Source of the DNA: Pseudobdellovibrionaceae bacterium
GTDB taxonomy: Bacteria; Bdellovibrionota; Bdellovibrionia; Bdellovibrionales; UBA1609
Assembly (NCBI GenBank): GCA_947444305.1
Contig: CANEZP010000008.1
Span: 86,682 to 150,681, forward strand
Direction of reading: 5' to 3'
DNA: 64,000 nucleotides
Numbering within the stretch: position 1 is the first letter of the stretch; each line of letters starts with the position of its first letter. The translations under genes were made by a program, and so were the position numbers. The notes beneath the pieces were generated by a model, which was not told the origin of the DNA, ran no database searches, and was given only the letters and a program-made list of their open reading frames with translations. Shown in pieces: positions 14,160-40,711 of this stretch.

Positions 14160-14235
14160 TGGGGTGTCGGCAAGCTGGTAAGCCTTCAGATTTTGATTCT
14201 GACATTCGCAGGTTCGAGTCCTGCCACCCCATCCA
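14160..14235 (+). tRNA. tRNA-Gln (anticodon UUG), CCA encoded
   Basis: Manual cloverleaf. Acceptor tggggtg/cacccca, D arm ggc-aagctggtaa-gcc, anticodon arm tcaga-ttTTGat-tctga, variable loop cattc, T arm gcagg-ttcgagt-cctgc, discriminator t, then CCA. 76 nt. Resembles E. coli tRNA-Gln. Confidence 0.9.
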
Positions 14236-14243: not shown

Positions 14244-15335
14244 CTAACTCCCCGAAATCAAACGCAGTTTTTTTGACAGAATATGGGTTGAGGGTTTTTG
14301 CGGGTCAACGTTTGCCCCGAACATCACATCTGTTGCCCCATCCACTCTGAAAACATCACTCAAGGCACTCGAAACCTTCTGCTTCTGATGATCCGTTTCG
14401 CCCGTATATCTGCGGGTCACTCTTACGGAAGAGTGTCCGAGAAAACGAGAGATCGCATCGATATCACCAGTCGCTTCGTTTGCGAGTGTAGCCGATGTTC
14501 TTCTCATGAAATGAGTTCCGCTTACGTGCGTGAAGCCTAGCGATTTAAGCATCGTGTTGTAGTACGTCGCGATTGTTTTCCTATTTAACGGACTTCCATC
14601 GTGACGTGGCATCAACAGCGGGTTCTTTGGATCACTTACATCGATCAGGCCTTTAAGCTCCGGCACCAACTCCAAAGGAATCGGTAGATAACGAACACGC
14701 TTTGTCTTCGTGTGCTCTTTAATTTTGGGCTCCCATGTACGGAAGTCCCAATGAACACTTCTACGAATCGTTATCACGCGCTTGTTGAGGTCGACGCAGT
14801 CTTTATAGAGTGCGCACACCTCACCGATCCTAAGGGCAAAGAAGTACTGTAGGAGTGCTGTGTAGTAGTAGGTCCGATGTCGATTCTTAAGTCTTTGAAG
14901 AAACGCGATGGTTTCTTCAGAGTTTAAGTACTTCACTTCACCTTCTACGTTCGGCACCAGCGTGGTCATCTTCTTTAGCTTCTTAAAAGAAGGCATTGCA
15001 TAGCCAGCCCCTTCCGGAACCTCCTCTTTATAGAACTGAAGAATGACTCGTAACATCTGCCATTCCTTCATGAAGGATTTTCTTCTGAAGGATCTGGGAA
15101 AGTCATTCATCCAAAAATACGCGAGGCGGTTCAAAACCTGGCCATCGATCTTATTCACCGGATAATCGAGAAGGAAGTCCACCGCGGGAAGTAGATTTTC
15201 GTACTTCTGCTGCGTACTTTCCTCGATCAAAAGAAAATGGAACTTCTTCCACACCACGATGAGATCGCGAAACAAGAACCCGAGGGTCCTTTCTCCTTCG
15301 ACGTCCATCGTAAGGCTAGAGTCTTCAAGACTCAT
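14244..15335 (-). CDS. int: Tyrosine recombinase / phage-type integrase
   Basis: 363 aa. Catalytic signature ALRIGE (Arg), HFMRRT (HxxR), LGHSSVRVTRRY (His, Tyr). The stop lies 9 nt from the tRNA end. Confidence 0.9.
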   Translation of the reverse strand: MSLEDSSLTMDVEGERTLGFLFRDLIVVWKKFHFLLIEESTQQKYENLLPAVDFLLDYPVNKIDGQVLNRLAYFWMNDFPRSFRRKSFMKEWQMLRVILQFYKEEVPEGAGYAMPSFKKLKKMTTLVPNVEGEVKYLNSEETIAFLQRLKNRHRTYYYTALLQYFFALRIGEVCALYKDCVDLNKRVITIRRSVHWDFRTWEPKIKEHTKTKRVRYLPIPLELVPELKGLIDVSDPKNPLLMPRHDGSPLNRKTIATYYNTMLKSLGFTHVSGTHFMRRTSATLANEATGDIDAISRFLGHSSVRVTRRYTGETDHQKQKVSSALSDVFRVDGATDVMFGANVDPQKPSTHILSKKLRLISGS

Positions 15336-25663: not shown

Positions 25664-25682
25664 CCTGCCACCCCATCCAATT
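25664..25682 (+). repeat. att-type direct repeat of the tRNA-Gln 3' end (junction island A / island B)
   Basis: cctgccaccccatccaatt, 19/19 identical to 14220-14238. Immediately followed by the second integrase gene. Confidence 0.7.
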
Positions 25683-25687
25683 CTTTT

Positions 25688-26692
25688 CTAAACATTCGAA
25701 ACCAAACGCAATTTTGAGACGGGTTTTTTCGGTGCGGGCTTTTGCGGGACAGAATCGCCCCCAAACATTTTATCCGCTCCCCCATCCACTTTAAAAACAT
25801 CGCCAAGCGCCTTTGAAATCTTCTGCTTCTGATGATCAGTTTCGCCCGTATATCTCCGAGTCACCCTCACTGAAGTGTGACCTAAGAATCTCGATACAGC
25901 GTCGATGTCGCCAGTCGCATCGTTTGCTAGAGTCGCGGCCGTTCTTCTCATGAAATGCGTTCCGCTAACGTGATTCAAACCCAGCGAACCCAAAACCATG
26001 TTGTAGTAAGTGGCAATCGTCTTCCTATTTACGGGAAGACCCTTCTTACTCACGAACAACGGATTGCTCGGATCACTTTGCTTAATCACATCTTGAAGTA
26101 CCGGAACCAACTGCTCAGGGATCGGCAAACGCCGTACGCGCTTTGTCTTCGTGTACTCTTTCACCGACGGCAGCCAGGTCCTTAGATCCCAGTGAACACA
26201 ACGACGAATCGTTATGACCTTCTTTTCAAGATCTATGCAGTCTTTGTAGAGGCCGCAGACTTCACCGATCCTCAGGGCAAAAAAGTACTGCAGAAGAGCG
26301 ACTACGAAATAAGTGTCATTACGTTTTTTAAGCTCTTGCAGGAACTTCGTCGCATCTTCTGAATCGAGGTACTTCACGGAACCATCGGAACTTTCAATGA
26401 GCACGGTCCTTTTGCGAGGCTTCTTAAACGAAGGCACATTATAGTTAACGCCCTCCTCAACTTCTTCTCTATAAAATCTTAAGATGACCCTTAGCAGTTG
26501 CCATTCTTTCTCGAACGATTTTCTCCGAAAGCTTCGAGGAAAATCGTTGAGCCAGAATTGCGCTAGCGAATTCAAAACCTTCCCGTCGATATCCTTAGCC
26601 GGGTAATCAGCTAAAAAATCGAGAGCCGGAAGAAGTTTCTCGTACGTTTTTACCGAACATTCGGTTATATTATCAGTCAGCATTTGTTTCAT
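25688..26692 (-). CDS. int: Tyrosine recombinase / integrase, paralog of 14244-15335
   Basis: 334 aa. ALRIGE, HFMRRT, LGHTSVRVTRRY. The C-terminal 111 aa are 81/111 identical to integrase 1 by manual alignment. Confidence 0.9.
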   Translation of the reverse strand: MKQMLTDNITECSVKTYEKLLPALDFLADYPAKDIDGKVLNSLAQFWLNDFPRSFRRKSFEKEWQLLRVILRFYREEVEEGVNYNVPSFKKPRKRTVLIESSDGSVKYLDSEDATKFLQELKKRNDTYFVVALLQYFFALRIGEVCGLYKDCIDLEKKVITIRRCVHWDLRTWLPSVKEYTKTKRVRRLPIPEQLVPVLQDVIKQSDPSNPLFVSKKGLPVNRKTIATYYNMVLGSLGLNHVSGTHFMRRTAATLANDATGDIDAVSRFLGHTSVRVTRRYTGETDHQKQKISKALGDVFKVDGGADKMFGGDSVPQKPAPKKPVSKLRLVSNV

Positions 26693-28845: not shown

Positions 28846-28866
28846 CCTGCCACCCCATCCAATTTC
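28846..28866 (+). repeat. att-type direct repeat of the tRNA-Gln 3' end (right end of island B)
   Basis: cctgccaccccatccaatttc, 21/21 identical to 14220-14240. Confidence 0.7.
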
Positions 28867-29020
28867 ATTTCCTTTAGTCGTTTACACTTCCCTACAATTC
28901 TTAGATGGTCCGCATGTTGACCACGCATTCGCGTGGATGGCGTGACAAGCGTTCGAGCCGACCGCATCCACGGACGGACAATCTCCGCTGGGAACATGAG
29001 GACTTGCGATTACCCGTCAG

Positions 29021-29033
29021 CCCCATCCAATTT
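29021..29033 (+). repeat. Partial att core copy
   Basis: ccccatccaattt, identical to 14227-14239 of the tRNA end. Only 13 nt. Confidence 0.45.
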
Positions 29034-29127
29034 TATGGATTATGTAAGGAATTTTTAAAATTGAAAGTCGAAAGGAGAATGTAGCGGTACGAGTATAACC
29101 TAAACAAGTGTTTTACCCGGTCCCAAA

Positions 29128-29877
29128 CTACATTGAGGTGCCTTTATTGTGGACCAAGATCCCTTCCACGATAAAGTTGTTCGGTGGTAATTCCAGGCCG
29201 ATGTGAAAGACAGTCCCAGTTCCGGCGCTTAAATCGAACGCTCCTCTAAAAACTAACGATGCCTCACATCCATCAACTTTAATAAGGCGATCCGTGGGAG
29301 CCATGTCACCGATGGCTACATAGTTTTTAGCATCAGCTGAATAGAATGGATGATCAGATGTAGTTTCGATGGCTTTACCCGTCGGAGACAAATTGCACAG
29401 ACGGCCAAATATTCTATTTTGAATGATCTGGATGGACTTCACTCGATTTATAATCTGGCGCTTACGATCAATATCCCAGGAAATAATCTCGTCCCCATTG
29501 CCGATGCTCGCGATCGCCACGTAGCCCTTGGGAGTCAGAACCCGCATTGCAGACGTAAAGCAACCGTACTTCGAAACCCCTCGGAGTCTTGTTTCCTCGG
29601 ACGCTAATCGCCGAATTTCATCGTGTCCAAATTTGGTCCCGGCTGATTTCTCCATCGATAGTGTTTCAATTGCAAATTGGCGGCGATCAGGCAGTACTAA
29701 TCCGTTGATTTCAATGTCCTCAACTATAGATGCAATTTTCTCTATTCTAGAAGAGTCCCTGGTGCTCACAGGAGGGTTTGCTGCACCAACCTTAGATGCT
29801 GTTCCTAAGAACAATAGTGACACGAAGATCAAAATAAGAATTTGCAGATACGATTTCATTATGGCCCGACGATGCAA
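29128..29877 (-). CDS. Secreted protein with C-terminal Hint (Hedgehog/intein-like, BIL-type) autoprocessing domain
   Basis: 249 aa. Signal peptide, about 75-aa N-terminal segment, then G-C-F (C106) opening a Hint domain: CFTSAMRVLTPKGYVAIASIGNGDEIISWD, TTSDHPFYS (TxxH block), ...GILVHN near the C-terminus. Confidence 0.75.
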   Translation of the reverse strand: MHRRAIMKSYLQILILIFVSLLFLGTASKVGAANPPVSTRDSSRIEKIASIVEDIEINGLVLPDRRQFAIETLSMEKSAGTKFGHDEIRRLASEETRLRGVSKYGCFTSAMRVLTPKGYVAIASIGNGDEIISWDIDRKRQIINRVKSIQIIQNRIFGRLCNLSPTGKAIETTSDHPFYSADAKNYVAIGDMAPTDRLIKVDGCEASLVFRGAFDLSAGTGTVFHIGLELPPNNFIVEGILVHNKGTSM

Positions 29878-30040
29878 TAATCATGGGGCGCTGTAAATTG
29901 CGGTGTTGAAGCATGCAATTTCAGTTGCGTACAATCGATCAACGACGATGAAGATTTTTCCTGAACAAAATCAGATAATGTAGGTCCCGCTTATTCGGAA
30001 ATGCCGCGGACCTAGATCAATTGCTTAGTACGTGCCCCAC

Positions 30041-30056
30041 CACCCCATCCAATTTC
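30041..30056 (+). repeat. att-type repeat remnant
   Basis: caccccatccaatttc, 16/16 identical to 14225-14240. Confidence 0.55.
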
Positions 30057-30231
30057 GCCCTTCCGCCCGAAATTGGACGAAAATAGAAAATCGAAAGTAG
30101 TAAGACGGGATCGAAGGCGGAACCGTCGTCGCAGGAAATTCCTCTATTTTCTATTGTCGTTTTCGGCGGCAGGACTCGGAGTGAGAACGCGGCCGCGAGG
30201 ACCTGCGTCTACACGAAGCCCCATCCATTGT

Positions 30232-30765
30232 TTAAAGATTTTCGATCGCCGCCTCGAGGGCGCTCGTTTGATCTTTGTATCGACCGCTGGCGACCAATTC
30301 CTCAAGCTTTTCTATTAGAGTTCGGGTGAGCTTAAAAGCCTTTAGATGCTTCTTCTCGTTAAGCGGCTTGGTTCGCTTGTCTTTGAGCTGCGTGTACGCC
30401 CACACTTTCAGCTTTTCAAATGCCACCCCTTCAAACTCAGGACCGGCGTGTTCGCCGGCGCGTAGAGCTTTAATGACGACACGTAGATTTTCTGGCATCT
30501 GCTCAAAGTCGCGAAAACTCTTTTGATAATGAAGTACGGCGGTCGGAAGCACTTCGATAATTCGAGGCTCAACATTCAGGCCGGCCCAAATAGCATCTTT
30601 AATCTCAAGCTTCATACCCGTTTTTCCAGCAATGGGTAGATTTGTATTAAGAAGGCCTTTGCCTTTTAGAAAGGCCATTGTTTTTTTAAAGCGTGGATCT
30701 TTTCGATGCTGAGTATTTTGCTCCGCTTTTGCTTTAATCTTATTTAGAAATTCTGCATTCTTCAT
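30232..30765 (-). CDS. Hypothetical protein with C-terminal ribbon-helix-helix-like segment
   Basis: 177 aa. The C-terminal KAFKLTRTLIEKLEELVASGRYKDQTSALEAAIENL has a beta-strand/helix/helix RHH-like pattern. The start lies 2 nt after the upstream gene's stop. Confidence 0.45.
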   Translation of the reverse strand: MKNAEFLNKIKAKAEQNTQHRKDPRFKKTMAFLKGKGLLNTNLPIAGKTGMKLEIKDAIWAGLNVEPRIIEVLPTAVLHYQKSFRDFEQMPENLRVVIKALRAGEHAGPEFEGVAFEKLKVWAYTQLKDKRTKPLNEKKHLKAFKLTRTLIEKLEELVASGRYKDQTSALEAAIENL

Positions 30766-30767
30766 AA

Positions 30768-31283
30768 TTATTCCCCAGCGAAGTAATTTAAATCGCCGCC
30801 GTTTTCTTCAATACGGCGCATGAGATCCGGAAACTTCTCGCTCGCAATTGCGTCTACGATCAGAACCTTATTCTTTTCTTTTGCCTTCACTGCTTTGCTA
30901 ACTAATGTAGATTCCGGATCTAGCAACTTCACACGAACGAACCTAGAATCAAAAAGCGTATCAAAAGTACTTCCCGGTGGAATCCAGACGAGCTCACTGT
31001 CGTCATCAAGCCGAAGATCGTACTTAGGAAGAATCTCTTTTTTCAAAACGCTGATCACGAACGCTTGATTCTCTTCAACGACTGCGTCGAGATCGTTCGT
31101 CATGGCAAGAGTAAGGATACTTGCTGCAAACTCGTTTGCGAGTAGCGAAGCTTGTCCCATAATTCGAACTTCGATTGGACGAAGTTTGAGGCTTCCGAGC
31201 TTTTCACGTTCCTCATTTTCGGATCTAATCCGCTCGTTTAATTCCTCAAATATGTTTCGAAGCGTCTCCCTCATCACATCCAT
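30768..31283 (-). CDS. Nucleotidyltransferase-fold-like protein (DUF6036/AbiEii-like pattern, tentative)
   Basis: 171 aa. N-terminal helix, then IEVRIMGQASLL...TNDLDAVV (G-x-[AS]...DxD-like), and later VRVKLLDPESTLVSKAVKAKEKNKVLI. Assignment by eye only. Confidence 0.45.
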   Translation of the reverse strand: MDVMRETLRNIFEELNERIRSENEEREKLGSLKLRPIEVRIMGQASLLANEFAASILTLAMTNDLDAVVEENQAFVISVLKKEILPKYDLRLDDDSELVWIPPGSTFDTLFDSRFVRVKLLDPESTLVSKAVKAKEKNKVLIVDAIASEKFPDLMRRIEENGGDLNYFAGE

Positions 31284-31290
31284 AATATAA

Positions 31291-31300
31291 CGTATATACG
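31291..31300. promoter_or_regulatory. Perfect 10-bp palindrome just upstream of the NTase-like gene (candidate operator)
   Basis: cgtatatacg lies 8 nt upstream of the ATG (31283). Two AGATCT palindromes occur at 31314-31319 and 31346-31351. Confidence 0.3.
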
Positions 31301-31512
31301 GTATTTTATCAATAGATCTTGAATACTTATGTTACTTTACAATGAGATCTTTAAAGCTAATAAATTCCAGAGCTTACGAGGAGGTGTACGTTAGGACTGA
31401 ATCCAACCGGGCCTATTCTGATGCACACCTATACCTTTCGGCACTCCAGCTAAGGAGCAACTATCTACGACGAAAAGAAGCATAGGAATGTTGACTACGC
31501 ATCTGAGCAAGT

Positions 31513-31905
31513 TCAACTGAACATTTTTGGCAGCGGGCGTCCGCCGAATTCTTTTTTCGAAAGCTTTCGAGGCTCTTTCTTCCAACCGAACTTTTCTAAA
31601 TCTATAAGTCCGTTTTCATCGACTTCAACGCCTTCGGCTTCAAGGCGCGATTTCTGCCTTTTGTAGTCAACCGAACCTTTTTGAAATTTAATGGAACCGT
31701 CGGACCTGATAACTCGGTACGCGGGGATTTCGGACGAATCTTTAAAGCGATTCACCATAATACTAATGGGACTGGATTGTTGCGCCCGTTCGCAAAGCCT
31801 GGCGATTTGGCCATAGGTTGCTACTTTGCCTTCTGGAATAGCGAGGACCCATTTCATAACGGACTCCCGCATCGTTCCGCTTGGAGCCTTAACAGGAATT
31901 TTCAT
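31513..31905 (-). CDS. Alkyltransferase-like (ATL) protein, MGMT DNA-binding domain without catalytic Cys
   Basis: 130 aa. IPEGKVATYGQIARL ... IPAYRVIRSDGSI. The PCHRV active-site motif is replaced by PAYRV. Confidence 0.75.
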   Translation of the reverse strand: MKIPVKAPSGTMRESVMKWVLAIPEGKVATYGQIARLCERAQQSSPISIMVNRFKDSSEIPAYRVIRSDGSIKFQKGSVDYKRQKSRLEAEGVEVDENGLIDLEKFGWKKEPRKLSKKEFGGRPLPKMFS

Positions 31906-32131
31906 TGATAGCTCCCCTCACTTTTAGAATTGACGCCGTATATTTATCGTTCTGCAGCGGTCATCAAGCCGATCTTCTCTTGGATTAACGAAAGAGCCAA
32001 AAGTTAATTCATTGGGATGTCAGCACCGGACGAGCCTAAAGTAACTGAGAAAGTTCACTTTGCTTTCTAATACGGCTCGGTAGAATAGTGATTACTAAAA
32101 CTTTTGATCTTTTAATAACCCCAGGGTCACC

Positions 32132-32818
32132 TTGATCAAGTCAAAATCCGTCAAAATCAAAACAGAATCAGGCTTCGTTTCAGGAATTCTTGAAATTCCG
32201 AACAAGACCACTGCAGGCCTAACGCTCGCGCACGGAGCGGGTGCGGGAATGCACCACGCATTTCTGCGCGACCTTTCGACCGCGTTGGTGGCGCGGGGCT
32301 TCGCGGTTCTGCGCTTTCAGTTTCCCTACATGGAGGCCGGGAAGAAGAGGCCGGATTCTCCCAAGGTTGCGTGCGCCACCGTTGCCGCCGCCGTGGCCGC
32401 GTTACGCAAGCGCGTCCCGGACCTGCCACTCTTCGGGGCGGGCAAATCATTTGGCTCACGCATGACCACGACTGCGGCCAGCGAAGGACTATTAGAGGAT
32501 TTGAGCGGCATCATTTGTTTCGGGTTTCCCCTTCATCCCGCCGGCCAACCCGGGATCAAGCGGGCCGAGCACCTTAAGCAAGTCGCGGTAAAAATGCTTT
32601 TCTTGCAAGGCACACGTGATGATCTCGCCGATCTTAAGCTTATGCGCGGCGTTTGCAAAAAACGACCGCGCGCTAAACTTCATATCGTCGAAGGTGCAGA
32701 CCATGGTTTCGCTGTACTAAAGCGATCGGGCCGAACTCCCGCGGACGTGTTGGAAGAGCTGGCGAACGAAGCGGCTGGTTTTGCCGCTCGTACCGGAACC
32801 CGTAAAACTCGAAAATAA
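32132..32818 (+). CDS. Alpha/beta-fold hydrolase (dienelactone-hydrolase/KANL3-like)
   Basis: 228 aa. Nucleophile elbow GKSFGSRM, later LFLQGTRDD and GADHGF (Asp/His region). Confidence 0.75.
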
Positions 32819-32845
32819 TTTTATAATAGAAGAAGTCGTAAGGAG

Positions 32846-33184
32846 TTAGCGGCACTCTAATGGGGAGGTGGCCGCGTACCCGGTCATCGGCTGCGAACAT
32901 CGCGTGAGTCCGTCGCTGAAGCTTAAGATGCCCTTCGGCGTACCGTTACCACCACCGGTCGGCGACCAGTGTTCGAAAGTCACTTTGACGTAAGGAAGAT
33001 TGAATTTATGGCCACTCTCTTGCGCGACCATAATCATCGACGAAATCGTATTATAAATAAAACCACACCACTCGGCTGAATTCTTAACCGCGGCGCACTC
33101 GGCGGTCCATTGCGGTGAGGCTTCGGCTTGGATAGCGAAGAAGATAAGTATGGTAGAGAGAATACGGGCGATTTGTGCTTTCAT
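32846..33184 (-). CDS. Small secreted Cys-containing protein, unknown function
   Basis: 112 aa with a signal peptide (ILIFFAIQAEA). No recognisable motif. Confidence 0.45.
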   Translation of the reverse strand: MKAQIARILSTILIFFAIQAEASPQWTAECAAVKNSAEWCGFIYNTISSMIMVAQESGHKFNLPYVKVTFEHWSPTGGGNGTPKGILSFSDGLTRCSQPMTGYAATSPLECR

Positions 33185-33317
33185 TTGTTCTTTCTCTTAA
33201 AGGGAATTCGATTTCTTGGAGACCGTGGATCGGGTTAGCTTAAGGTTCTCGTTCAGGTCAATCCTCGGTCAGGAACAAGGTGCAAACTGCGAAGAAACGG
33301 GTTAAATTTCCTTACCT

Positions 33318-33653
33318 ATGAAAAATAAAACACTCTTCGCAATCTTTACCTCGCTTATCGGAGCGGCCTGCTCCACTCAGCCCTTTACCCAATCCTTATT
33401 GGCCGATGGAGCCACTTGGGAGGTTAGCGCCAATGAAGTCGATTGCCGTGGCGTGCCCGACTGCAAAGGTAAGATGAAATCCATCGTCGCCGATCGTGGG
33501 CGCTTCGTTTGTGGCCAGAAACCTTTTCGGGTCATGTCCTGCGATCCCAGAATGGCAAGCTACGGTATGGCAAAGGTAAAGTGCATGATCCGATGTGGAG
33601 AAAAACCACTTTCCGATACGCCCGGCCAAAAGCAACTTGAGCAAGAGCTTTAA
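33318..33653 (+). CDS. Small lipoprotein, unknown function
   Basis: 111 aa. Lipobox LIGAAC. Several Cys residues. Confidence 0.5.
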   Translation: MKNKTLFAIFTSLIGAACSTQPFTQSLLADGATWEVSANEVDCRGVPDCKGKMKSIVADRGRFVCGQKPFRVMSCDPRMASYGMAKVKCMIRCGEKPLSDTPGQKQLEQEL

Positions 33654-33737
33654 GCAGTCGGTTGGGCGACGAAGCGCTCTATTCATTAGCTTATCGAAAT
33701 TTTACATCGAGCTTCTCCGTCAAAACGGCTCGCAATC

Positions 33738-35054
33738 TTAATAGCTGCTGCCGGAACCGCCGCCACCCGAGGAACCTCCGCCGAAAGAGCCTCCGCCGCC
33801 GCCACTAGAACCTGAGCTGCCGCTGTAGCCAGAACTTCCACTTGAATCCGAGACGGCGGAGATGGCGGCAATTGCGTATAGTTCTCGCTTCAGCGATTTA
33901 CAGGCCAGACACTGGAAATGCCGTTCACCCCGCCCCTCGCTTGAAGTCGTCGGTTGCTCAAGGACTTTATTACTGATGCGCTTATTTGCCTTCGCATGGC
34001 ATTTTTCACATTCCGAATACTTGTAGGCATTGGGGCCTTCGTAACTATCTTTGCGAACATGTCCCTCGGGGCAAACCCAGACGTCATAGTCTACCGAGCC
34101 GATCTTTTCTTCGACAATTTCTTCTGGATCCTCGAAGGCTTTTTCCTGTTTATTATTCTGCAACACCATCGTTTGCCGGCAGTGCGGGCATTCGCGCGGT
34201 TGCGCGCGCAGACGTTCGGCCCACGCCGTCCGTGTTAAGTTTCCGACGATGAACCAGAGCACGGCCAAGCCGAAGCCGATGCCCAATGCGTTGAGTTCCC
34301 CGGATGAATAGGCAAACCACGCAAATGGCATAAAGAAGCTGGCGATCTGCCAGAAAAACAAAAAGCGGAAATCTTTGTACAACTGCCGGTAACGCCAAAG
34401 CGGATCCGGGTTCTTAAATAGAACAAGCATGCAGAGGAACGAGCAAAGGAGAAGGAAAGCGATGATCCCGGCGATAATGATTAAGGCTCCACGGCCTTCT
34501 CTATCGCCAGGATTAAATAAAGATGCACTCTGTCCGTCGGTTTGGAAATTCCTGGCGCTTGAATCTCCAAGCAAAACATCTTCTATTTTTCGCAAACCTG
34601 AAAGAAACCCCGCCGCAGCCCGACCTTGTTTGAGCGCCGGCACAATTAATTCTTGCTGAATTCGAAACAAGGTCACATCGGGCAGGACACCCTCTAAACC
34701 GTAACCGGTTTCCATTTCGATGCGCCGCTGATCGGTGACGAGGAGTATGAGAAGTCCGTTATCCTTAACTTTGTCGCCGATTTTCCAAAGGTTGAAAAGT
34801 TCGACCGCGAAGTCTTTCGGGATTTTCTTTCCGATACTTTTCAAAGTGACCAGCGCCACCTCGGCTTGCGTACGCTGATGAATTTCAGAAAGGACGGTTT
34901 CGATCTCCGCTTTCTCCTGAGAATTAAAAACGCCGGCGTTGTCGACGGCCCATTGATTCACTTTCCTCGGATTCGGTACGTCTCGCACATTGGCGATTTG
35001 TGCGTGTAAGGAAGTGCCGAGCAAACAGATAAGGGCGAGCATGATGTTGTACAT
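33738..35054 (-). CDS. TPM-domain membrane protein with zinc-ribbon-like insert and Gly/Ser-rich tail
   Basis: 438 aa. TPM pattern VDNAGVFNSQEKAEIETVL...NGLLILLVTDQRRIEMETGYGLEGVLPD. TM segments. CPHC...CPEGH...CEKC...CLAC. Tail SGSSGGGGGSFGGGSSGGGGSGSSY. Confidence 0.8.
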   Translation of the reverse strand: MYNIMLALICLLGTSLHAQIANVRDVPNPRKVNQWAVDNAGVFNSQEKAEIETVLSEIHQRTQAEVALVTLKSIGKKIPKDFAVELFNLWKIGDKVKDNGLLILLVTDQRRIEMETGYGLEGVLPDVTLFRIQQELIVPALKQGRAAAGFLSGLRKIEDVLLGDSSARNFQTDGQSASLFNPGDREGRGALIIIAGIIAFLLLCSFLCMLVLFKNPDPLWRYRQLYKDFRFLFFWQIASFFMPFAWFAYSSGELNALGIGFGLAVLWFIVGNLTRTAWAERLRAQPRECPHCRQTMVLQNNKQEKAFEDPEEIVEEKIGSVDYDVWVCPEGHVRKDSYEGPNAYKYSECEKCHAKANKRISNKVLEQPTTSSEGRGERHFQCLACKSLKRELYAIAAISAVSDSSGSSGYSGSSGSSGGGGGSFGGGSSGGGGSGSSY

Positions 35055-35261
35055 GCTCTTAGTTCAACACTCCTGAACGCTACGTTCAAAGTAAACGCAG
35101 GCCACTGGTCTATTGGCGTGATGGAGGGCCGCGCGACCAAGGCCTTTGAAAATTAGGCGCGTATGCCTAAACTTTTTACGGGCCGGCCAGGCGTTGCTTT
35201 TGGGATCCGCCCTGCTAAAAACCTAGATATTTTAGGCCCCCCCTTTGCAGCACTCCGGTAC

Positions 35262-36434
35262 ATGCTTAAGAATTTCCTTGTCCACATCGTATCGCTCGCC
35301 ATCGCTTTGCAATTCACCTTGGTGCTTCCGGTGAACGCCGCCGAAGATGAGACTCCCTCCGAACCCGTGGTGCCGATCTATCAATATAAAATCAATCCGG
35401 CGAGCCCCTCACCGATCCAGGAAATTCGCGTACTGGGTGGTGAAGCCAATTCCGTTGAAGAGCTTGAGGTCCTTCAAGAAGCGCTAACGAATAATAAACA
35501 GTTCGATGCCGTCACCATGGCCGAGCCCGATGAACCCACGGCCGTTCATCACTCCTTTAGAGAAAGGGCTAATCGATTATATTCCGAACTGAAAGCGCCG
35601 ATCCAGAGACGCGTTAAACTCTCTAGTCGCCATTTTGGGGATTGGTTTGTAAAAAACAGACTTCGCATTTCGATTGTCGCTATCGAAGTGATCACCGTTG
35701 CCGGTGTAAAGTACACCGAATTGCATTTTGGACCGCAGGCTTTTTCGCATTCGGTGGCCTTGACCGCCGGCATTTCAATGTCTGCGTTGATGGGCGTGGT
35801 CGACTGGAACACACCTCGCTTAATTCGATTTTTAACTACGACTTCGACTCCGGTACAGGCCGTGCTCGAACGAATCTCGAAGATGGCAGGAGATGAGCGC
35901 CAAGTGGCCCTGCACAAGACGCTGAGCACGGCTCATCAGTTTACCAAAAATGCGGGAATCAATTTAGCGATCTTCAGCGTTTTTAAAGCTATCCTACTCG
36001 CCACAACGCACGACGGGACCAATTTCGAGAACGCCTTGTGGGCGTTGCATGCGCTTGCGCCCGGCGAAGTCCTCGATTCCGTTAAATTGTCGGTTCTATC
36101 AACGGCCGTTTCATTCCCGACCACGATGGTCATCTTGGCGTACAACAAAAAGGCCAAGGCAAATGCCGATGGAAATTCGGAGGCGCTCGCGCAAGTGGCG
36201 AAAAATTCGATGACCATGATGTCCGCGGCTCTTACCTCGCGAGCACTTTTGTTCTCGTCGATCATCGTCGGCCAGCAGTTCCAATGGCAAACTTTGGAGC
36301 TCGCGGGATATTCGGGCCTCGGCGCAATATTCGTGGGAAGCATTTGGAAGCTTGTGTCCGACCTTACTAAGGCACGGCGCTTGGATTGTGCGAAGTCTTT
36401 AGCTAAAGAGCGTTCTCGCGTTCGCTCTCGGTAA
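35262..36434 (+). CDS. Membrane protein, unknown function
   Basis: I prefer ATG 35262 (MLKNFLVHIVSLAIALQFTLVLPVNA signal-like start) over the longest-ORF start 35163. Multiple TM segments in the C-terminal half. Confidence 0.5.
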   Translation: MLKNFLVHIVSLAIALQFTLVLPVNAAEDETPSEPVVPIYQYKINPASPSPIQEIRVLGGEANSVEELEVLQEALTNNKQFDAVTMAEPDEPTAVHHSFRERANRLYSELKAPIQRRVKLSSRHFGDWFVKNRLRISIVAIEVITVAGVKYTELHFGPQAFSHSVALTAGISMSALMGVVDWNTPRLIRFLTTTSTPVQAVLERISKMAGDERQVALHKTLSTAHQFTKNAGINLAIFSVFKAILLATTHDGTNFENALWALHALAPGEVLDSVKLSVLSTAVSFPTTMVILAYNKKAKANADGNSEALAQVAKNSMTMMSAALTSRALLFSSIIVGQQFQWQTLELAGYSGLGAIFVGSIWKLVSDLTKARRLDCAKSLAKERSRVRSR

Positions 36435-36774
36435 GCTTTCGTAGTGCGGTGAGCTCGCCCACCTGTTGGGGAAGATCATTAAATGCGGTGCGCCCGATAA
36501 AGAAATTCAGCGCCGTCTTTTGCACGATCCACTCTTGATCCGACTCAGGCAGTTGTCCGAACTCAACGGATTCCATTGCAAGACGCCTCACCTCTTGGCG
36601 AACGAGCTCATCGTCCATCGCGACCAAGGCGTTCTTATCATCTGTGGACTGGGAAGGAAGGGCTAAGATTTCGACGGGCGCGGCGTGAGCCACCGGGTTT
36701 TCGGTGCCCTTCATTAAGTAAGTCGTGAGGCTGATAACGACCATAAAGCTCGAAACGATTTCTAAGCGCATCAC
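36403..36774 (-). CDS. Hypothetical secreted protein
   Basis: 123 aa with a hydrophobic N-terminus. Overlaps the convergent gene by 32 nt. Confidence 0.4.
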   Translation of the reverse strand: MMRLEIVSSFMVVISLTTYLMKGTENPVAHAAPVEILALPSQSTDDKNALVAMDDELVRQEVRRLAMESVEFGQLPESDQEWIVQKTALNFFIGRTAFNDLPQQVGELTALRKLTESERENAL

Positions 36775-36979
36775 CTATTGTCGTTCATTTCGAAAGTTTC
36801 GAAAACCGGCAAATTTTTAATCACCTGATTTGGATCAGGTTGAGACGCTCCAACGAAAAAAATCAATCTAAAACATCTAATGTGAAGGACCGGGGCAAGG
36901 CTTTGCAGATTCTAGAGTCAGGCCGGCACTTTCTAATTTCTCATTTTACGAAAGGCTACTGAGCTGTAAAAAACCGGCG

Positions 36980-37633
36980 TCAGCCGCGGAATCGGCGATC
37001 CTTAATGGCGCCTGATTTATGGAAAGCGCGTATGATGGCCAAGGCATCGGCCTCCGCGCGATGGGCGCCGTAGCTAAACCCGTAGTGCCGACAGATCTTT
37101 TCTAGTCCGTAGCGTTCCAGGTTCGGATTGAACTTTTTGAAGTGCTTGCGAGAACAGAATCACTTGTTCGAATAGGTTTCGCCAACTCGCCGGAACTCGT
37201 TATTCAGGAAACCTTGGTCGAAGCGCGAATTCTGCGCGACTAACCTTCTTGTTTCCATGAAAGCTTTGATCTCCGCGGCCTGCTCCCGGAACGTTTTCGC
37301 TTCTAAGAGTGAATCATCCCGGATCTTATGAACTCGTAACGCTCCCGGATGACTTTTTCTTCCCTCGGGATTAACCAAGGCAACGTACTTAAGAAGGCGC
37401 CACTTCTCCGGCGAAACCTCCGTAAACTTGATGAGCGCGATTTCAATGATTCGATCATTCTCCGGATACGCACCGGTCGTCTCGGTATCGACAAAACAGA
37501 GTTTACCTATGTCCGGGCCAAAGTGTCCCCGAACATCTTGCAGAAGTTCGCGTTCGACCGGATCGATCACTTCATCCAATTCGGGTGAGGCCGGGTCGCA
37601 CAAATCGAAATTTAGGGAGTATTGATGATCCAC
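36980..37633 (-). pseudogene. DEDDh (DnaQ-like) 3'-5' exonuclease interrupted by a single in-frame TGA
   Basis: The 157-aa ORF carries Exo I (FVDTETTG) and Exo II (VAQNSRFDQGFL). It stops at TGA 37162-37160. The same frame continues FCSRKHFKKF...YGAHRAEADALAII (Exo III, HxxxxD) to TGA 36982-36980. Confidence 0.75.
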
Positions 37634-37803
37634 TTCAGATTAGATTAGATTAGCCATGAGAGAGTTCGCCCGCAAGGCATCACCTCACCGTCTGATAAAA
37701 AGCACGTGGCTGCCCGCTCGGCTGGACAATGTAGGCACAGTTTACACAAACCGAGTTCTGGTGATGACAAGATTTCGAAGTTTTCTTACAGGTTGCTTAT
37801 CGT

Positions 37804-38484
37804 ATGAGCTTTAAAGCGTTGATAATGTTTGCTTCAATTTATTATACCGCTACGGTACACGCGGTGAACTGCCGATCTTCACTGACCGAAAGTCAGGTGC
37901 AGCTTGAAATCATTATCGAAAAAGCTAGAGGTTACTATCAATTGGTTGATGCACTGGAAGGCAATCCTCAAGACGTTCAGGCATTGAATATGTTTGTCGA
38001 ATTTTTTGATTCTCATTCTGGTCTGGCCGCGCTTCAGCTTCCGCGCGCCATAAAAAGGCCGGAGTACCTCGACTTTCTGGAGAGGATTCTAAAAACAGAG
38101 ATGTCTCATCTAAAAGAGCAGATGAACGACGGTGATCGACAAACCCTGTTGTCGCGCCAGCGAGCGATTGTTTCGGCCATCATCTCCGCAGACACCGATT
38201 ATGCTTTTGATATCTTGATGCGCGCATTGGACTCAAACAACCCGTTCGTAGCTGAACCGGTGGCTTTCAGTTTAGATTCCGTTGGAAGATCAGATTTGAG
38301 GGCTAGGGCACTCGTCAAGGCCGCGAGTAGTCCAATTGCCGCAATTCGAAGAGGGGCCGCGGTCAGTATTCGAAACCTGGTCGCGCCCCAAAGCGAAGAA
38401 ATTGAAAATATTTGGCAGGATCTTGCAAAAGATAATGACGAGACGGTCCGCATGCAAACAGCGTTTACGCGCGGACGCGATTAA
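37804..38484 (+). CDS. Secreted alpha-helical repeat (HEAT-like) protein
   Basis: 226 aa. Signal peptide. C-terminal segments ...SSPIAAIRRGAAVSIRNL... and DNDETVRMQTAF resemble HEAT repeats. Tentative. Confidence 0.45.
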   Translation: MSFKALIMFASIYYTATVHAVNCRSSLTESQVQLEIIIEKARGYYQLVDALEGNPQDVQALNMFVEFFDSHSGLAALQLPRAIKRPEYLDFLERILKTEMSHLKEQMNDGDRQTLLSRQRAIVSAIISADTDYAFDILMRALDSNNPFVAEPVAFSLDSVGRSDLRARALVKAASSPIAAIRRGAAVSIRNLVAPQSEEIENIWQDLAKDNDETVRMQTAFTRGRD

Positions 38485-38488
38485 ATCA

Positions 38489-39310
38489 CTACTCGCAAAA
38501 ACGAGTGATCAAAGGTGAAAGTTCCACGCGCCGTTTAAGCGCATCCGCTTTCATGTCTTCGCAATCGGCCGTGATTTCGGTTTCCGCCGTTGAAAACGTG
38601 TCGGACACTTGCTTGGCGATGTCATGCTCAACTTTTTTAGATTGAAGGCATGAGCTTATCTTAGAAATTTCGGCCTTGGTGGTGTTTTGCTCCAGCGCGG
38701 TCTTCGGCGAGAAGTTAATATCTTTAGCGTCGGTTACAAATTTGCCACGCACACGCTTCTCGATATTCAAGGAGTAGAGATACACTTTACTCGTATCATT
38801 CGGACGGATGCTGGGATGAACCGGTCGGTAGCCGGCGATGTTGATATTGATCTGTACGCGCAAGGATTGATCGGCGGGGCCAACGCACGATTCAACTTTT
38901 TGGGCGTCATAAAGACAGTACGCTTCGAGCGAAAGGCCGATCGCCTTCAAACTCTCGGCGCTGGCGATCAGCTTGCGAAAGAACTCAAGAGCTGAGTCAC
39001 GGTACAAAGTGTGATCCTTGTGAGTGCGGGCAATCTGCTCGAGGTTCTGCACCTCTTTAGCCGCCAGGTCTAATTCCTGCCGCAAGTTAACGTCACAAGG
39101 AAGATAGGTTTTCGAGCCGCCGCTAAAATATCTATACTCTTTGAGATAAACGAGCCCGGTCTTCTCGGCGAGTCGCTCTTCCATCTTGCTTTGCCGTTCG
39201 AGCAGGACCGGGTCCGGGCTTTTGATCATCTCGGTCGGCTTCTTTTTGTTGTCGCAAGCCGAGATCGAAAGAGCACACACCGCTAAAAGCAAAATCATTT
39301 TTTTATCCAC
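38489..39310 (-). CDS. Lipoprotein, unknown function
   Basis: 273 aa. Lipobox LSISAC. Confidence 0.55.
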   Translation of the reverse strand: MDKKMILLLAVCALSISACDNKKKPTEMIKSPDPVLLERQSKMEERLAEKTGLVYLKEYRYFSGGSKTYLPCDVNLRQELDLAAKEVQNLEQIARTHKDHTLYRDSALEFFRKLIASAESLKAIGLSLEAYCLYDAQKVESCVGPADQSLRVQININIAGYRPVHPSIRPNDTSKVYLYSLNIEKRVRGKFVTDAKDINFSPKTALEQNTTKAEISKISSCLQSKKVEHDIAKQVSDTFSTAETEITADCEDMKADALKRRVELSPLITRFCE

Positions 39311-39386
39311 GAGCGACTCCGTCGTAAGGTTCGGGAGACTTCAATCGCAATACGGAGGCCATACTCTGCTCGCGTATATCGCCACT

Positions 39387-39409
39387 GCCGCCTCTGGGCG
39401 GTATTTTTT
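39387..39409 (+). terminator. Orphan Rho-independent-terminator-like hairpin
   Basis: ccgcc-tctg-ggcgg followed by tatttttt on the plus strand. There is no plus-strand gene upstream. Confidence 0.35.
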
Positions 39410-39625
39410 GCAGAATGATGTGCGAGATTGGACCTCGCGATGAGTGACAATTAATGGCGTGAAGCGGCTCACGGCGTAAATTAGATGGACGTGCCTCCCG
39501 CTTTTTAATCCTCGCAAACTTGAATAAGGCTTAGATTGTGAACCGTGCTTGTTCCTTGATGATGATTTGGGAACTTTTCTTTTCAGTGTGCAGCAGGGGT
39601 GCAGGCACGGCGGCGACTTAAAATA

Positions 39626-40711
39626 CTAAGGAATACAGTGCTCTTTCTTTACCGAGCAGCTTTTAATTGTATCATCCTCCTGGCCGATGATGCAGTTGCA
39701 GACTTCCTGAGAAGATGAGGATTTTCCAACGATCCGCATTTTCCGGTAGATATATGATTCTTCGTCTTCGGCAGGTTCTTTTGATTCGATTTCTATCGGC
39801 CGTGCCGTGAAATCTGAAATCGTAAACCGCGCTGACCGGGAGTATCTACCCGCACCGCCGGTCACACAACCGACGGTGAACTGTTTTTTTATTTTTAGAT
39901 CCGGCTCCGGATTGCAGAGGCTCTCGCCGCCGTAACCCTCAATTTTCAAATTACTAAAGTTGGATTTTTGGGGATCATAAAGCCAGATCGCATAATTAGT
40001 GTCATTGTGGATCCGTAGCTCTGTTCGCACGGCAATGTCTTTATACCCGTCACCATCATAATCTTTATCCGTGGACCACCAGTCGATATGGTTCGACATC
40101 TCGAAAAAATCTGTCTTCAATTCCTGCTCGTAATCATTTAGAGCTTGAAGTGCTTTGGTAGGATGGCTGGGATCGACAATAATGAAAGAAGATATTTCGC
40201 CATCTTTTTGAATCATATCGATTCGAAGGGGCTTTACCTTCCGGCCTATTCTATCCAATTGCATGTGTATAAGCTGTTGAGTGTCGATCTTTTTCCTCGG
40301 TTGCAATTTGATCGTTCCAAGTGCTCCTCGTGAAGGTTTCCAGTTGCCCTCCACCGATCCTTCTTTTATTTGAATCGCCCATGTTCCACCCGTAGGGTTT
40401 CCGCCTTCAAACTCTTCAACCGCGATGTTCGGAGAATCGCCCTCCCGTTTTCCAATAATACGAATGGGCTTTAAAGTCTTCTCGTAGTAATAAAAACCCA
40501 ATAAAGATCTTGGCTTTCCATTCTCGTATTCAACCTCGAAGTGAGCCGTAACGGGGAGCTTTTGATCCGGGATTGAAATCTCGCCATCAAGGTGAAATCG
40601 CTTTTCATCAGCGCGAGCGAAGTTTGACGATATCGTGATCGCAAGAATTAAAAACAAAGGTAACTTCGAGCTCAACCGGTAACGATTTGTTTCCATCTTG
40701 CCCCCTTCCAA
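39626..40711 (-). CDS. Secreted protein, unknown function (DxDGDG Ca-binding-like motif)
   Basis: 361 aa. Signal peptide. DKDYDGDGYKD motif. Several C-terminal Cys. Confidence 0.55.
   Translation of the reverse strand: MEGGKMETNRYRLSSKLPLFLILAITISSNFARADEKRFHLDGEISIPDQKLPVTAHFEVEYENGKPRSLLGFYYYEKTLKPIRIIGKREGDSPNIAVEEFEGGNPTGGTWAIQIKEGSVEGNWKPSRGALGTIKLQPRKKIDTQQLIHMQLDRIGRKVKPLRIDMIQKDGEISSFIIVDPSHPTKALQALNDYEQELKTDFFEMSNHIDWWSTDKDYDGDGYKDIAVRTELRIHNDTNYAIWLYDPQKSNFSNLKIEGYGGESLCNPEPDLKIKKQFTVGCVTGGAGRYSRSARFTISDFTARPIEIESKEPAEDEESYIYRKMRIVGKSSSSQEVCNCIIGQEDDTIKSCSVKKEHCIP

Follow-up and report, generated by a model that had tools for sequence, protein, structure and literature searches.

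What does a Hint domain do at the very end of a small secreted protein, where only five residues follow it? This question is raised by a gene on the minus strand of a 64-kb window (64,000 nucleotides, the whole stretch analyzed here) of contig CANEZP010000008.1, from a Pseudobdellovibrionaceae bacterium. We found that the gene encodes a Sec-like leader, a short helical N-domain and a terminal Hint domain, and that this arrangement is shared by a family of relatives. We read it as a probable bacterial intein-like (BIL) protein of two domains that is exported by Sec and processes itself in a Cys100-dependent manner.

Gene, fold and family of the Hint protein

In the open reading frame (ORF) list of the window, the Hint protein occupies 29128..29877 on the minus strand. 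Its 243-aa counterpart in the database, P0001, shows 100% identity and begins with MKSY, which corresponds to the ATG at 29859. Because the identical protein begins there, we take this ATG as the start, and the true product probably has 243 aa. Hence, the catalytic cysteine that a first-pass annotation of the sequence had called C106 is numbered Cys100 here. The features of the gene are as follows.

29128..29859, minus strand: gene for the secreted N-domain and Hint protein, 243 aa from the probable start (ORF list and P0001)
29877, minus strand: alternative TTG start, whose product would be 249 aa
29782..29859, minus strand: predicted signal peptide, residues 1-26, MKSYLQILILIFVSLLFLGTASKVGA/A (sequence inspection and a predicted helix at 3-18)
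29563..29781, minus strand: N-domain, residues 27-99, 73 aa, 8.1 kDa, isoelectric point 6.9 (AlphaFold model; conserved in 46 protein clusters)
29146..29562, minus strand: Hint (bacterial intein-like) domain, residues 100-238 (Pfam, NCBIfam and PDB matches, AlphaFold model, Foldseek)
29560..29562, minus strand: codon of Cys100, the first Hint residue, with Gly99 before it and Phe101 after it (read from the sequence)
29350..29361, minus strand: block B, T167-S-D-H170 (codons read from the sequence)
29146..29151, minus strand: block G, the terminal His237-Asn238 (codons read from the sequence)
29131..29145, minus strand: tail K239-G-T-S-M, five residues with Lys at +1 (codons read from the sequence)
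29128..29130, minus strand: stop codon (read from the sequence)

By a heuristic and on inspection, the leader is Sec-like, with K2, a hydrophobic stretch at 5-21 and V-G-A/A at 24-27, and it lacks a lipobox; by a crude measure, 37 of the 46 family members have a comparable hydrophobic N-terminus. The gene has no paralogue elsewhere in the 64-kb window. An antisense ORF of 122 aa (29528-29896, plus strand) overlaps it; this ORF is unsupported and was taken as spurious. An independent Logan assembly (ERR10509557, a 31-kb contig) is 100% identical to window positions 28967-39859.

We found that sequence profiles and a structural model agree on the identity of the C-terminal domain. The best Pfam match of the protein was PT-HINT (E 4.7e-6, 27.3 bits; cut-off 27.7), with further scores for Intein_splicing (E 8e-4), Hint_2 (E 0.02) and Hog-Hint (E 0.14), and Hint_2 was matched by 40 of 45 family members. 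The NCBIfam model of the intein N-terminal region matched at E 9e-4; an NCBIfam match to EntV-bacteriocin (E 0.19) was dismissed as noise. The best PDB match by sequence was 2lwy, a bacterial intein-like domain of Clostridium thermocellum (E 9.5e-6). AlphaFold (AF2), given an alignment of 45 sequences, returned a model with a predicted local distance difference test (pLDDT) score of 90.9 and a predicted template modeling (TM) score of 0.72, and the Hint domain within it exceeds a pLDDT of 90; this model supersedes a poor one made with only the five closest sequences (pLDDT 61.6).

When the AF2 model was compared with the PDB by Foldseek, there were 66 matches at E<=1e-3, and the best 50 of the 66 were all Hint structures, with a probability of 1.00 and target TM scores of 0.70-0.87 to BIL domains, inteins and the Hedgehog Hh-C domain. 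The top match among those listed was Tetrahymena BUBL1 BIL2 (E 8e-10). Mini-inteins such as Ssp DnaB reached a TM score of 0.87 at a root-mean-square deviation of 1.8 A, 2lwy matched with 25% identity and a TM score of 0.83, and Hedgehog Hh-C (1at0) stood lower in the list (E 6e-7, TM 0.70); across BIL2, the mini-inteins, 2lwy and Hh-C, E ranged from 8e-10 to 1e-6. Within the limits of prediction, this establishes the Hint fold. The first-pass annotation, which had read a complete Hint domain here and had named a Hint-family profile search and a structure prediction as ways of checking it, is borne out by both: the canonical catalytic positions are present, and Pfam, the PDB, AF2 and Foldseek concur, although the PT-HINT score lies below its curated cut-off.

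The catalytic positions are also conserved in the relatives. A profile search of 1.84 billion representative proteins gave 5028 relatives at E<=1e-3, 27 of them at E<=1e-30; a local search of 154 retrieved proteins found 266 Hint domains, from which the following counts come. Cys is the first Hint residue in 252 of the 254 domains that reach this position, and in the aligned domains block B has Thr in 239/263 and His in 249/263, the penultimate residue is His in 241/255, and the last is Asn in 243/253. Lys follows directly, at +1, in 184 of 248 domains of the clade. Cys100 is the presumed nucleophile for an N-to-S acyl shift at the Gly99-Cys100 bond.

Cysteines other than the first also recur in the family. 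The Hint begins C-F-T-C, so that a CxxC lies at the cleavage site, in 18 of 47 family Hints, and the window protein has Ser at position 4; a further Cys before block F, Cys198 in the window protein, is conserved. The CxxC and this second Cys could act as redox switches of a periplasmic autoprocessing domain.

The N-domain is also conserved in the family. A hidden Markov model of the region from signal peptide to Cys1 matched 46 of the 154 retrieved proteins, and 45 of these 46 share one layout: behind an N-terminal hydrophobic leader come ~60 aa of helical N-domain, then a linker that varies, and finally a single Hint. No more than eight residues (<=8) follow the Hint in 41 of the 44 N-domain proteins whose terminal position could be aligned. 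Since 45 of 46 have a single Hint and 41 of 44 a short tail, ending just after the Hint is the native state of these proteins and not a truncation. The N-domain consensus is R...I....G...P....E...GR.(F/L)(S/T)..E(I/V), and the model of the window copy has three helices (33-45, 59-73 and 79-93) and a short hairpin at pLDDT 89-98.

The N-domain has no consistent Pfam family and no significant sequence match in the PDB; the best PDB match found, to a P450 (E 0.001), was taken as chance. Searched by itself against a set of 5.8 billion proteins, the N-domain profile returned nothing, and the full family alignment returned only seven matches from the same set, where generic Hint words swamped the search. 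The first-pass annotation had recognized no similarity for this segment; it was correct in that Pfam and the PDB hold no match, and the segment is nevertheless not alone of its kind, being a conserved ~60-aa domain in 46 clusters. By sequence, the Hint protein is not an orphan, and at least 46 protein clusters share its N-domain, the nearest relatives being 45-47% identical to the window protein.

The remaining 108 of the 154 proteins include tandem arrays of 2-7 Hints joined head to tail as ...VHNKGGCF.... Five metagenomic proteins (P0010, P0030, P0034, P0035 and P0044) have 3-7 Hints fused directly, as ...VHNK-G(G)-CF..., and in some of these a membrane segment comes next, followed by a large C-terminal part that is not Hint.

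Proposed self-processing and its alternatives

How, then, would the protein process itself? After export, the signal peptide would be removed first. By homology with every characterized Hint domain, Cys100 would then attack the Gly99 carbonyl, and an N-to-S acyl shift, aided by Thr167 and His170, would yield a thioester; its resolution would part the 73-aa, 8.1-kDa helical N-domain from the 15-kDa Hint. His237-Asn238 would probably cut off the five-residue tail through cyclization of the Asn. The Hint would in this way be a single-turnover maturation device and the N-domain the functional product, which probably acts outside the cell or in the periplasm of a Bdellovibrio-like predator. BIL domains are documented in reviews to cleave themselves at their N- or C-ends and to give mainly cleaved products; we regard release of the N-domain as the outcome with the best support. 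N-terminal autoprocessing in the BIL or Hedgehog manner is also the chemistry that the first-pass annotation had expected, and the Hint fold and the catalytic residues agree with it.

Several observations weigh against this mechanism. The PT-HINT score is 0.4 bits under the curated cut-off. The position of the block F Asp of inteins is occupied by His in the window protein and differs among family members, which leaves the efficiency of catalysis in doubt. Cys100, Cys155 and Cys198 would meet an oxidizing periplasm, where Cys100 could be trapped as a disulfide. The conserved terminal Asn and the tail Lys are not needed for simple N-terminal cleavage. The steps themselves are drawn from sequence and a structural model.

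The Asn and the Lys point to the most serious alternative, in which the two ends are joined and not merely cut. In such a BIL-type ligation, the thioester forms at Cys100, Asn238 cyclizes, and an amine of the released tail (the alpha or epsilon amine of Lys239) attacks the thioester, which would leave the N-domain joined to KGTSM here and to KPIF or KPIHIT in relatives. We regard this outcome as unlikely, though it is a serious rival because A-type BIL domains can ligate and BUBL BIL2 forms a Lys isopeptide. Of 47 family Hints, 39 still end in Asn although just 1-7 residues come after it; Lys occurs in 38 of 41 short tails (in 35 at +1 to +3), compared with 7.9 expected from composition; and members with no more than 30-45% identity repeatedly have tails with the motifs KPIF and KP[IG]HIT. 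Judged by sequence, conservation of this Asn and of a Lys in the tail speaks for use of the C-terminal junction and hints at ligation rather than plain cleavage. A-type BIL domains splice without a +1 nucleophile (reviews including PMC9185962), and the best structural match, BUBL BIL2, makes a Lys isopeptide. However, the window tail KGTSM differs from the family motifs, one review has A-type BIL domains cleaving and not ligating, and the Lys could instead serve catalysis or folding. The same evidence qualifies the first-pass statement that splicing is impossible for want of a C-extein nucleophile: the +1 residue is indeed Lys and canonical class-1 intein splicing is excluded, whereas impossibility goes too far given A-type BIL ligation and the Lys-isopeptide route of BUBL BIL2. 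An extension of this idea, which we consider doubtful, is that the Hint and the Lys tail form an ATP-independent single-turnover ligase that joins the C-terminal carboxylate of the N-domain to an amine; the acceptor may be the Lys of its own tail, or a Lys or other amine of a prey or envelope target. Predatory bacteria would then possess, in secreted form, their own equivalent of the 'ubiquitin-dispensing' BIL of ciliate BUBL.

Three further explanations find less favor. An external nucleophile (a lipid, a peptidoglycan amine, or a prey or self protein) could attack the thioester as in Hedgehog, so that the N-domain would be anchored or conjugated. The order of signal peptide, N-terminal cargo and C-terminal Hint is that of Hedgehog, BUBL is a precedent for Hint-mediated conjugation to other proteins, and one homologue adjoins a gene for a YkuD L,D-transpeptidase; yet only five residues follow the Hint, there is no sterol- or adduct-recognition region, the Pfam Hog-Hint match has E 0.14, Hh-C ranks under BIL domains and inteins, and no partner gene is conserved across nine loci, the YkuD neighbor being seen once. 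Because the adduct-recognition region is absent, lipid transfer in the Hedgehog style is less likely, and we hold such transfer in general to be improbable. The gene might also be a non-functional leftover of an eroded island, no longer processed or expressed, which we judge quite improbable. It does lie in an integrase-less, 1-kb att-bounded remnant with a G+C content of 0.45-0.46 against 0.52-0.545 in the core, its tail departs from the family motif, and a promoter and terminator scan at the gene gave background levels, with no clear promoter or Shine-Dalgarno sequence; but the reading frame is intact, the catalytic positions and the N-domain core are kept at 45-47% identity to the nearest relatives, and the AF2 model is confident. 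That the protein is a polymorphic-toxin PT-HINT without its C-terminal toxin, or a decayed intein, is very improbable indeed. PT-HINT is the best Pfam match, but its score is under the cut-off, homologues end <=8 residues past the Hint (41 of 44 that could be aligned) and all carry their cargo on the N-terminal side, the ORF list of the window has no immunity-like gene adjacent, and no host protein is split by the domain. Cys100-dependent autoprocessing with release of the N-domain remains the preferred reading.

The tRNA-Gln island and the loci of relatives

The first-pass annotation had placed the gene alone between two remnants of attachment (att) sites. We found that these are real repeats, derived from the 3' end of a tRNA-Gln gene, and that the Hint gene is indeed the only one between the copies at 29021-29033 and 30040-30056. 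The 3' end of the tRNA, CCCCATCCAATTT, has six matches in the window at <=1 mismatch, against 0.05 expected; besides the tRNA-Gln itself, direct repeats of it lie at 25671, 28853, 29021 and 30043. An Rfam scan returned tRNA only. The features of the array are as follows.

14160..14235, plus strand: tRNA-Gln(UUG), the integration target, whose 3' end is the repeated core (ARAGORN, Rfam)
14244..15335, minus strand: tyrosine integrase of island 1 (Pfam Phage_integrase, E 1e-22)
25664..25683, plus strand: att copy between islands 1 and 2, 20 nt with 1 mismatch
25688..26692, minus strand: tyrosine integrase of island 2 (Pfam, E 7e-24; 68% identical to integrase 1 by blastp)
28846..28866, plus strand: att copy closing island 2, 21 nt
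29021..29033, plus strand: att-core copy on the 3' side of the Hint gene, 13 nt of the tRNA-Gln 3' end
30040..30056, plus strand: att-core copy on the 5' side of the Hint gene, the last of the array, 17 nt

Both integrases sit just past the first two att copies. The Hint gene is the sole plausible gene of the last module (29034-30039), and a tblastn search found no integrase or integrase remnant in 28.6-32 kb. From these repeats we infer that the Hint gene is the cargo of a tRNA-Gln integrative element whose recombinase has been lost or is supplied in trans. Integrase-less modules flanked by att sites are cis-mobilizable elements (CIMEs). Like CIMEs and tRNA-linked tandem islands, the Hint module is bounded by tRNA 3'-end repeats, with att sites on both sides and no recombinase; unlike them, one of its att copies has only 13 nt and low G+C passes the last copy.

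The base composition follows the array: G+C is 0.43-0.51 from 14.2 to ~31.9 kb and 0.52-0.545 outside, and the Hint module itself has 0.45-0.46. Low G+C (0.43-0.47) runs ~1.9 kb beyond the last att copy (30057-31905), and the island may in fact end near 31.9 kb. Within this tract, two adjacent minus-strand ORFs (30232-30765 and 30768-31283) have no significant Pfam match, and 31513-31905 encodes a small protein with only an MGMT DNA-binding domain.

The other modules carry different genes. Island 1 (14.2-25.7 kb) has genes for an FMN-reductase (ArsH-like), an SBF/Acr3-like protein, a copper P-type ATPase and a multicopper oxidase, and island 2 (25.7-28.9 kb) has an ABM-like gene, a TetR gene and a serine resolvase gene. 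A sixth, imperfect copy of the repeat, CCCCATCCACTTT, lies at 25780-25792 within the island 2 integrase gene and may be chance or an internal remnant. The Logan contig ERR10509557 breaks off at 28967, in the interval between two att copies, which fits an assembly interrupted by the repeats. The window also codes for a DUF4423 protein.

In its relatives the gene lives elsewhere. The few relatives that have organism names are annotated as 'Hint domain-containing protein' and come from metagenome-assembled genomes (MAGs) of Bdellovibrionales and from one Myxococcales MAG; the others are metagenome proteins. At nine homologous loci, the family gene lies by itself in a housekeeping context; no neighbor or partner gene is conserved, the att motif is missing, and the gene is chromosomal, not island-borne. 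Two Bdellovibrionales-like loci (L001, 2284-2991, and L011, 113-805) share synteny, adjoining tadA-rpsU-yqeY-dnaG-rpoD, which suggests vertical inheritance as a chromosomal gene, unlike the island copy of the window. At L001 (Bdellovibrionales), the ORF just upstream of the Hint gene resembles the family by eye. The closest named homologue, P0004 from a Bdellovibrionales MAG (L004, 3968-4240; L005, 1105-1617), is the one convergent with the YkuD L,D-transpeptidase gene, an adjacency seen at one locus and possibly coincidental. There were no N-domain-bearing relatives in JGI metagenome contigs and no N-domain member in viral contigs, where the matches came from inteins, presumably of phages, and covered no more than their first Hint block. 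The arrangement may be linked to predatory lineages.

Comparison with known Hint classes

To which kind of Hint protein does the family belong? The window protein has the marks of the HINT superfamily: the predicted fold, a nucleophile at position 1 (Cys100) and the T-x-x-H of block B. We ruled out an intein, given the +1 Lys, the five residues after the domain, the lack of a split host protein and the terminal Hint in 45 of 46 homologues. PT-HINT proteins (PF07591) release a C-terminal toxin, whereas the window protein has no C-terminal domain and scores 27.3 bits against the 27.7 of that profile.

The first-pass name 'Hedgehog-like' holds for the domain order. Hedgehog Hh-C (1at0) and the window protein share that order, the predicted first chemical step and a G/CF junction, but the window protein has the terminal His-Asn and no sterol-recognition region. 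We rejected a Hog domain, as the Hint ends at residue 238 of 243, leaving no sterol-recognition region, and PF01079 reaches just 12.2 bits (cut-off 29.7; E 0.14), with only profile positions 8-54 matched. BIL domains and mini-inteins match better, and the G/CF junction is peculiar to the window copy, since the -1 residue varies in homologues (R, H, K, F and others). Hence, because there is no sterol-recognition region and Gly at -1 is not conserved, the protein is closer to BIL domains than to Hedgehog.

The nearest structural likeness, BUBL1 BIL2 of Tetrahymena thermophila (PDB 6tmm/6y75), is a Hint that passes the C-terminal carboxylate of a small N-terminal domain to the amine of a Lys. That domain has a ubiquitin-like beta-grasp fold and is part of a cytosolic polyprotein of a eukaryote, whereas the cargo of the window protein is helical and belongs to a secreted bacterial protein, and the two Hints are 20% identical.

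Among bacterial domains, 2lwy, which we take to be an A-type BIL domain, shares with the window protein Cys1, T-x-x-H, the C-terminal His-Asn and a non-nucleophilic +1 residue. A-type BIL domains conserve the C-terminal His-Asn and do not require a +1 nucleophile, and B-type domains lack the intein-type C-terminal His-Asn (PMC9185962); B-type was ruled out here, as His-Asn is present. By motif, H237-N238 followed by K239, the window Hint agrees with the A-type. By location it does not: reviews place A-type domains within the variable regions of secreted proteins that are larger and not conserved, whereas the window Hint is the last domain of a 243-aa protein, follows a conserved N-domain and has the +1 Lys typical of its clade.

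Hint domains outside inteins and Hedgehog are poorly understood, and their release or attachment products in bacteria are almost uncharacterized. The family described here offers a compact and strictly conserved architecture of signal peptide, 60-aa helical domain, terminal Hint and Lys tail. If the Asn and the Lys tail mean ligation, nature would have in this family a minimal means of conjugating proteins through a thioester in the cell envelope, and protein engineers would gain a candidate tool.

The closest published counterpart is a C-type BIL domain. The passages of PMC9185962 that cite Dori-Bachash et al. 2009 (Funct Integr Genomics 9:153) describe such a domain with an N-terminal PPS-1 ('putative predator-specific') domain in Bdellovibrio bacteriovorus and other predators. 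As in the window protein, a conserved N-domain precedes the Hint, a likeness drawn from the description in those passages; PPS-1 is described from predators, and the named relatives of the window protein are Bdellovibrionales and Myxococcales MAG proteins. By this analogy, the window family is likely the C-type BIL/PPS-1 family, and the window protein does not found a new class but gives a well-supported instance of one described before.

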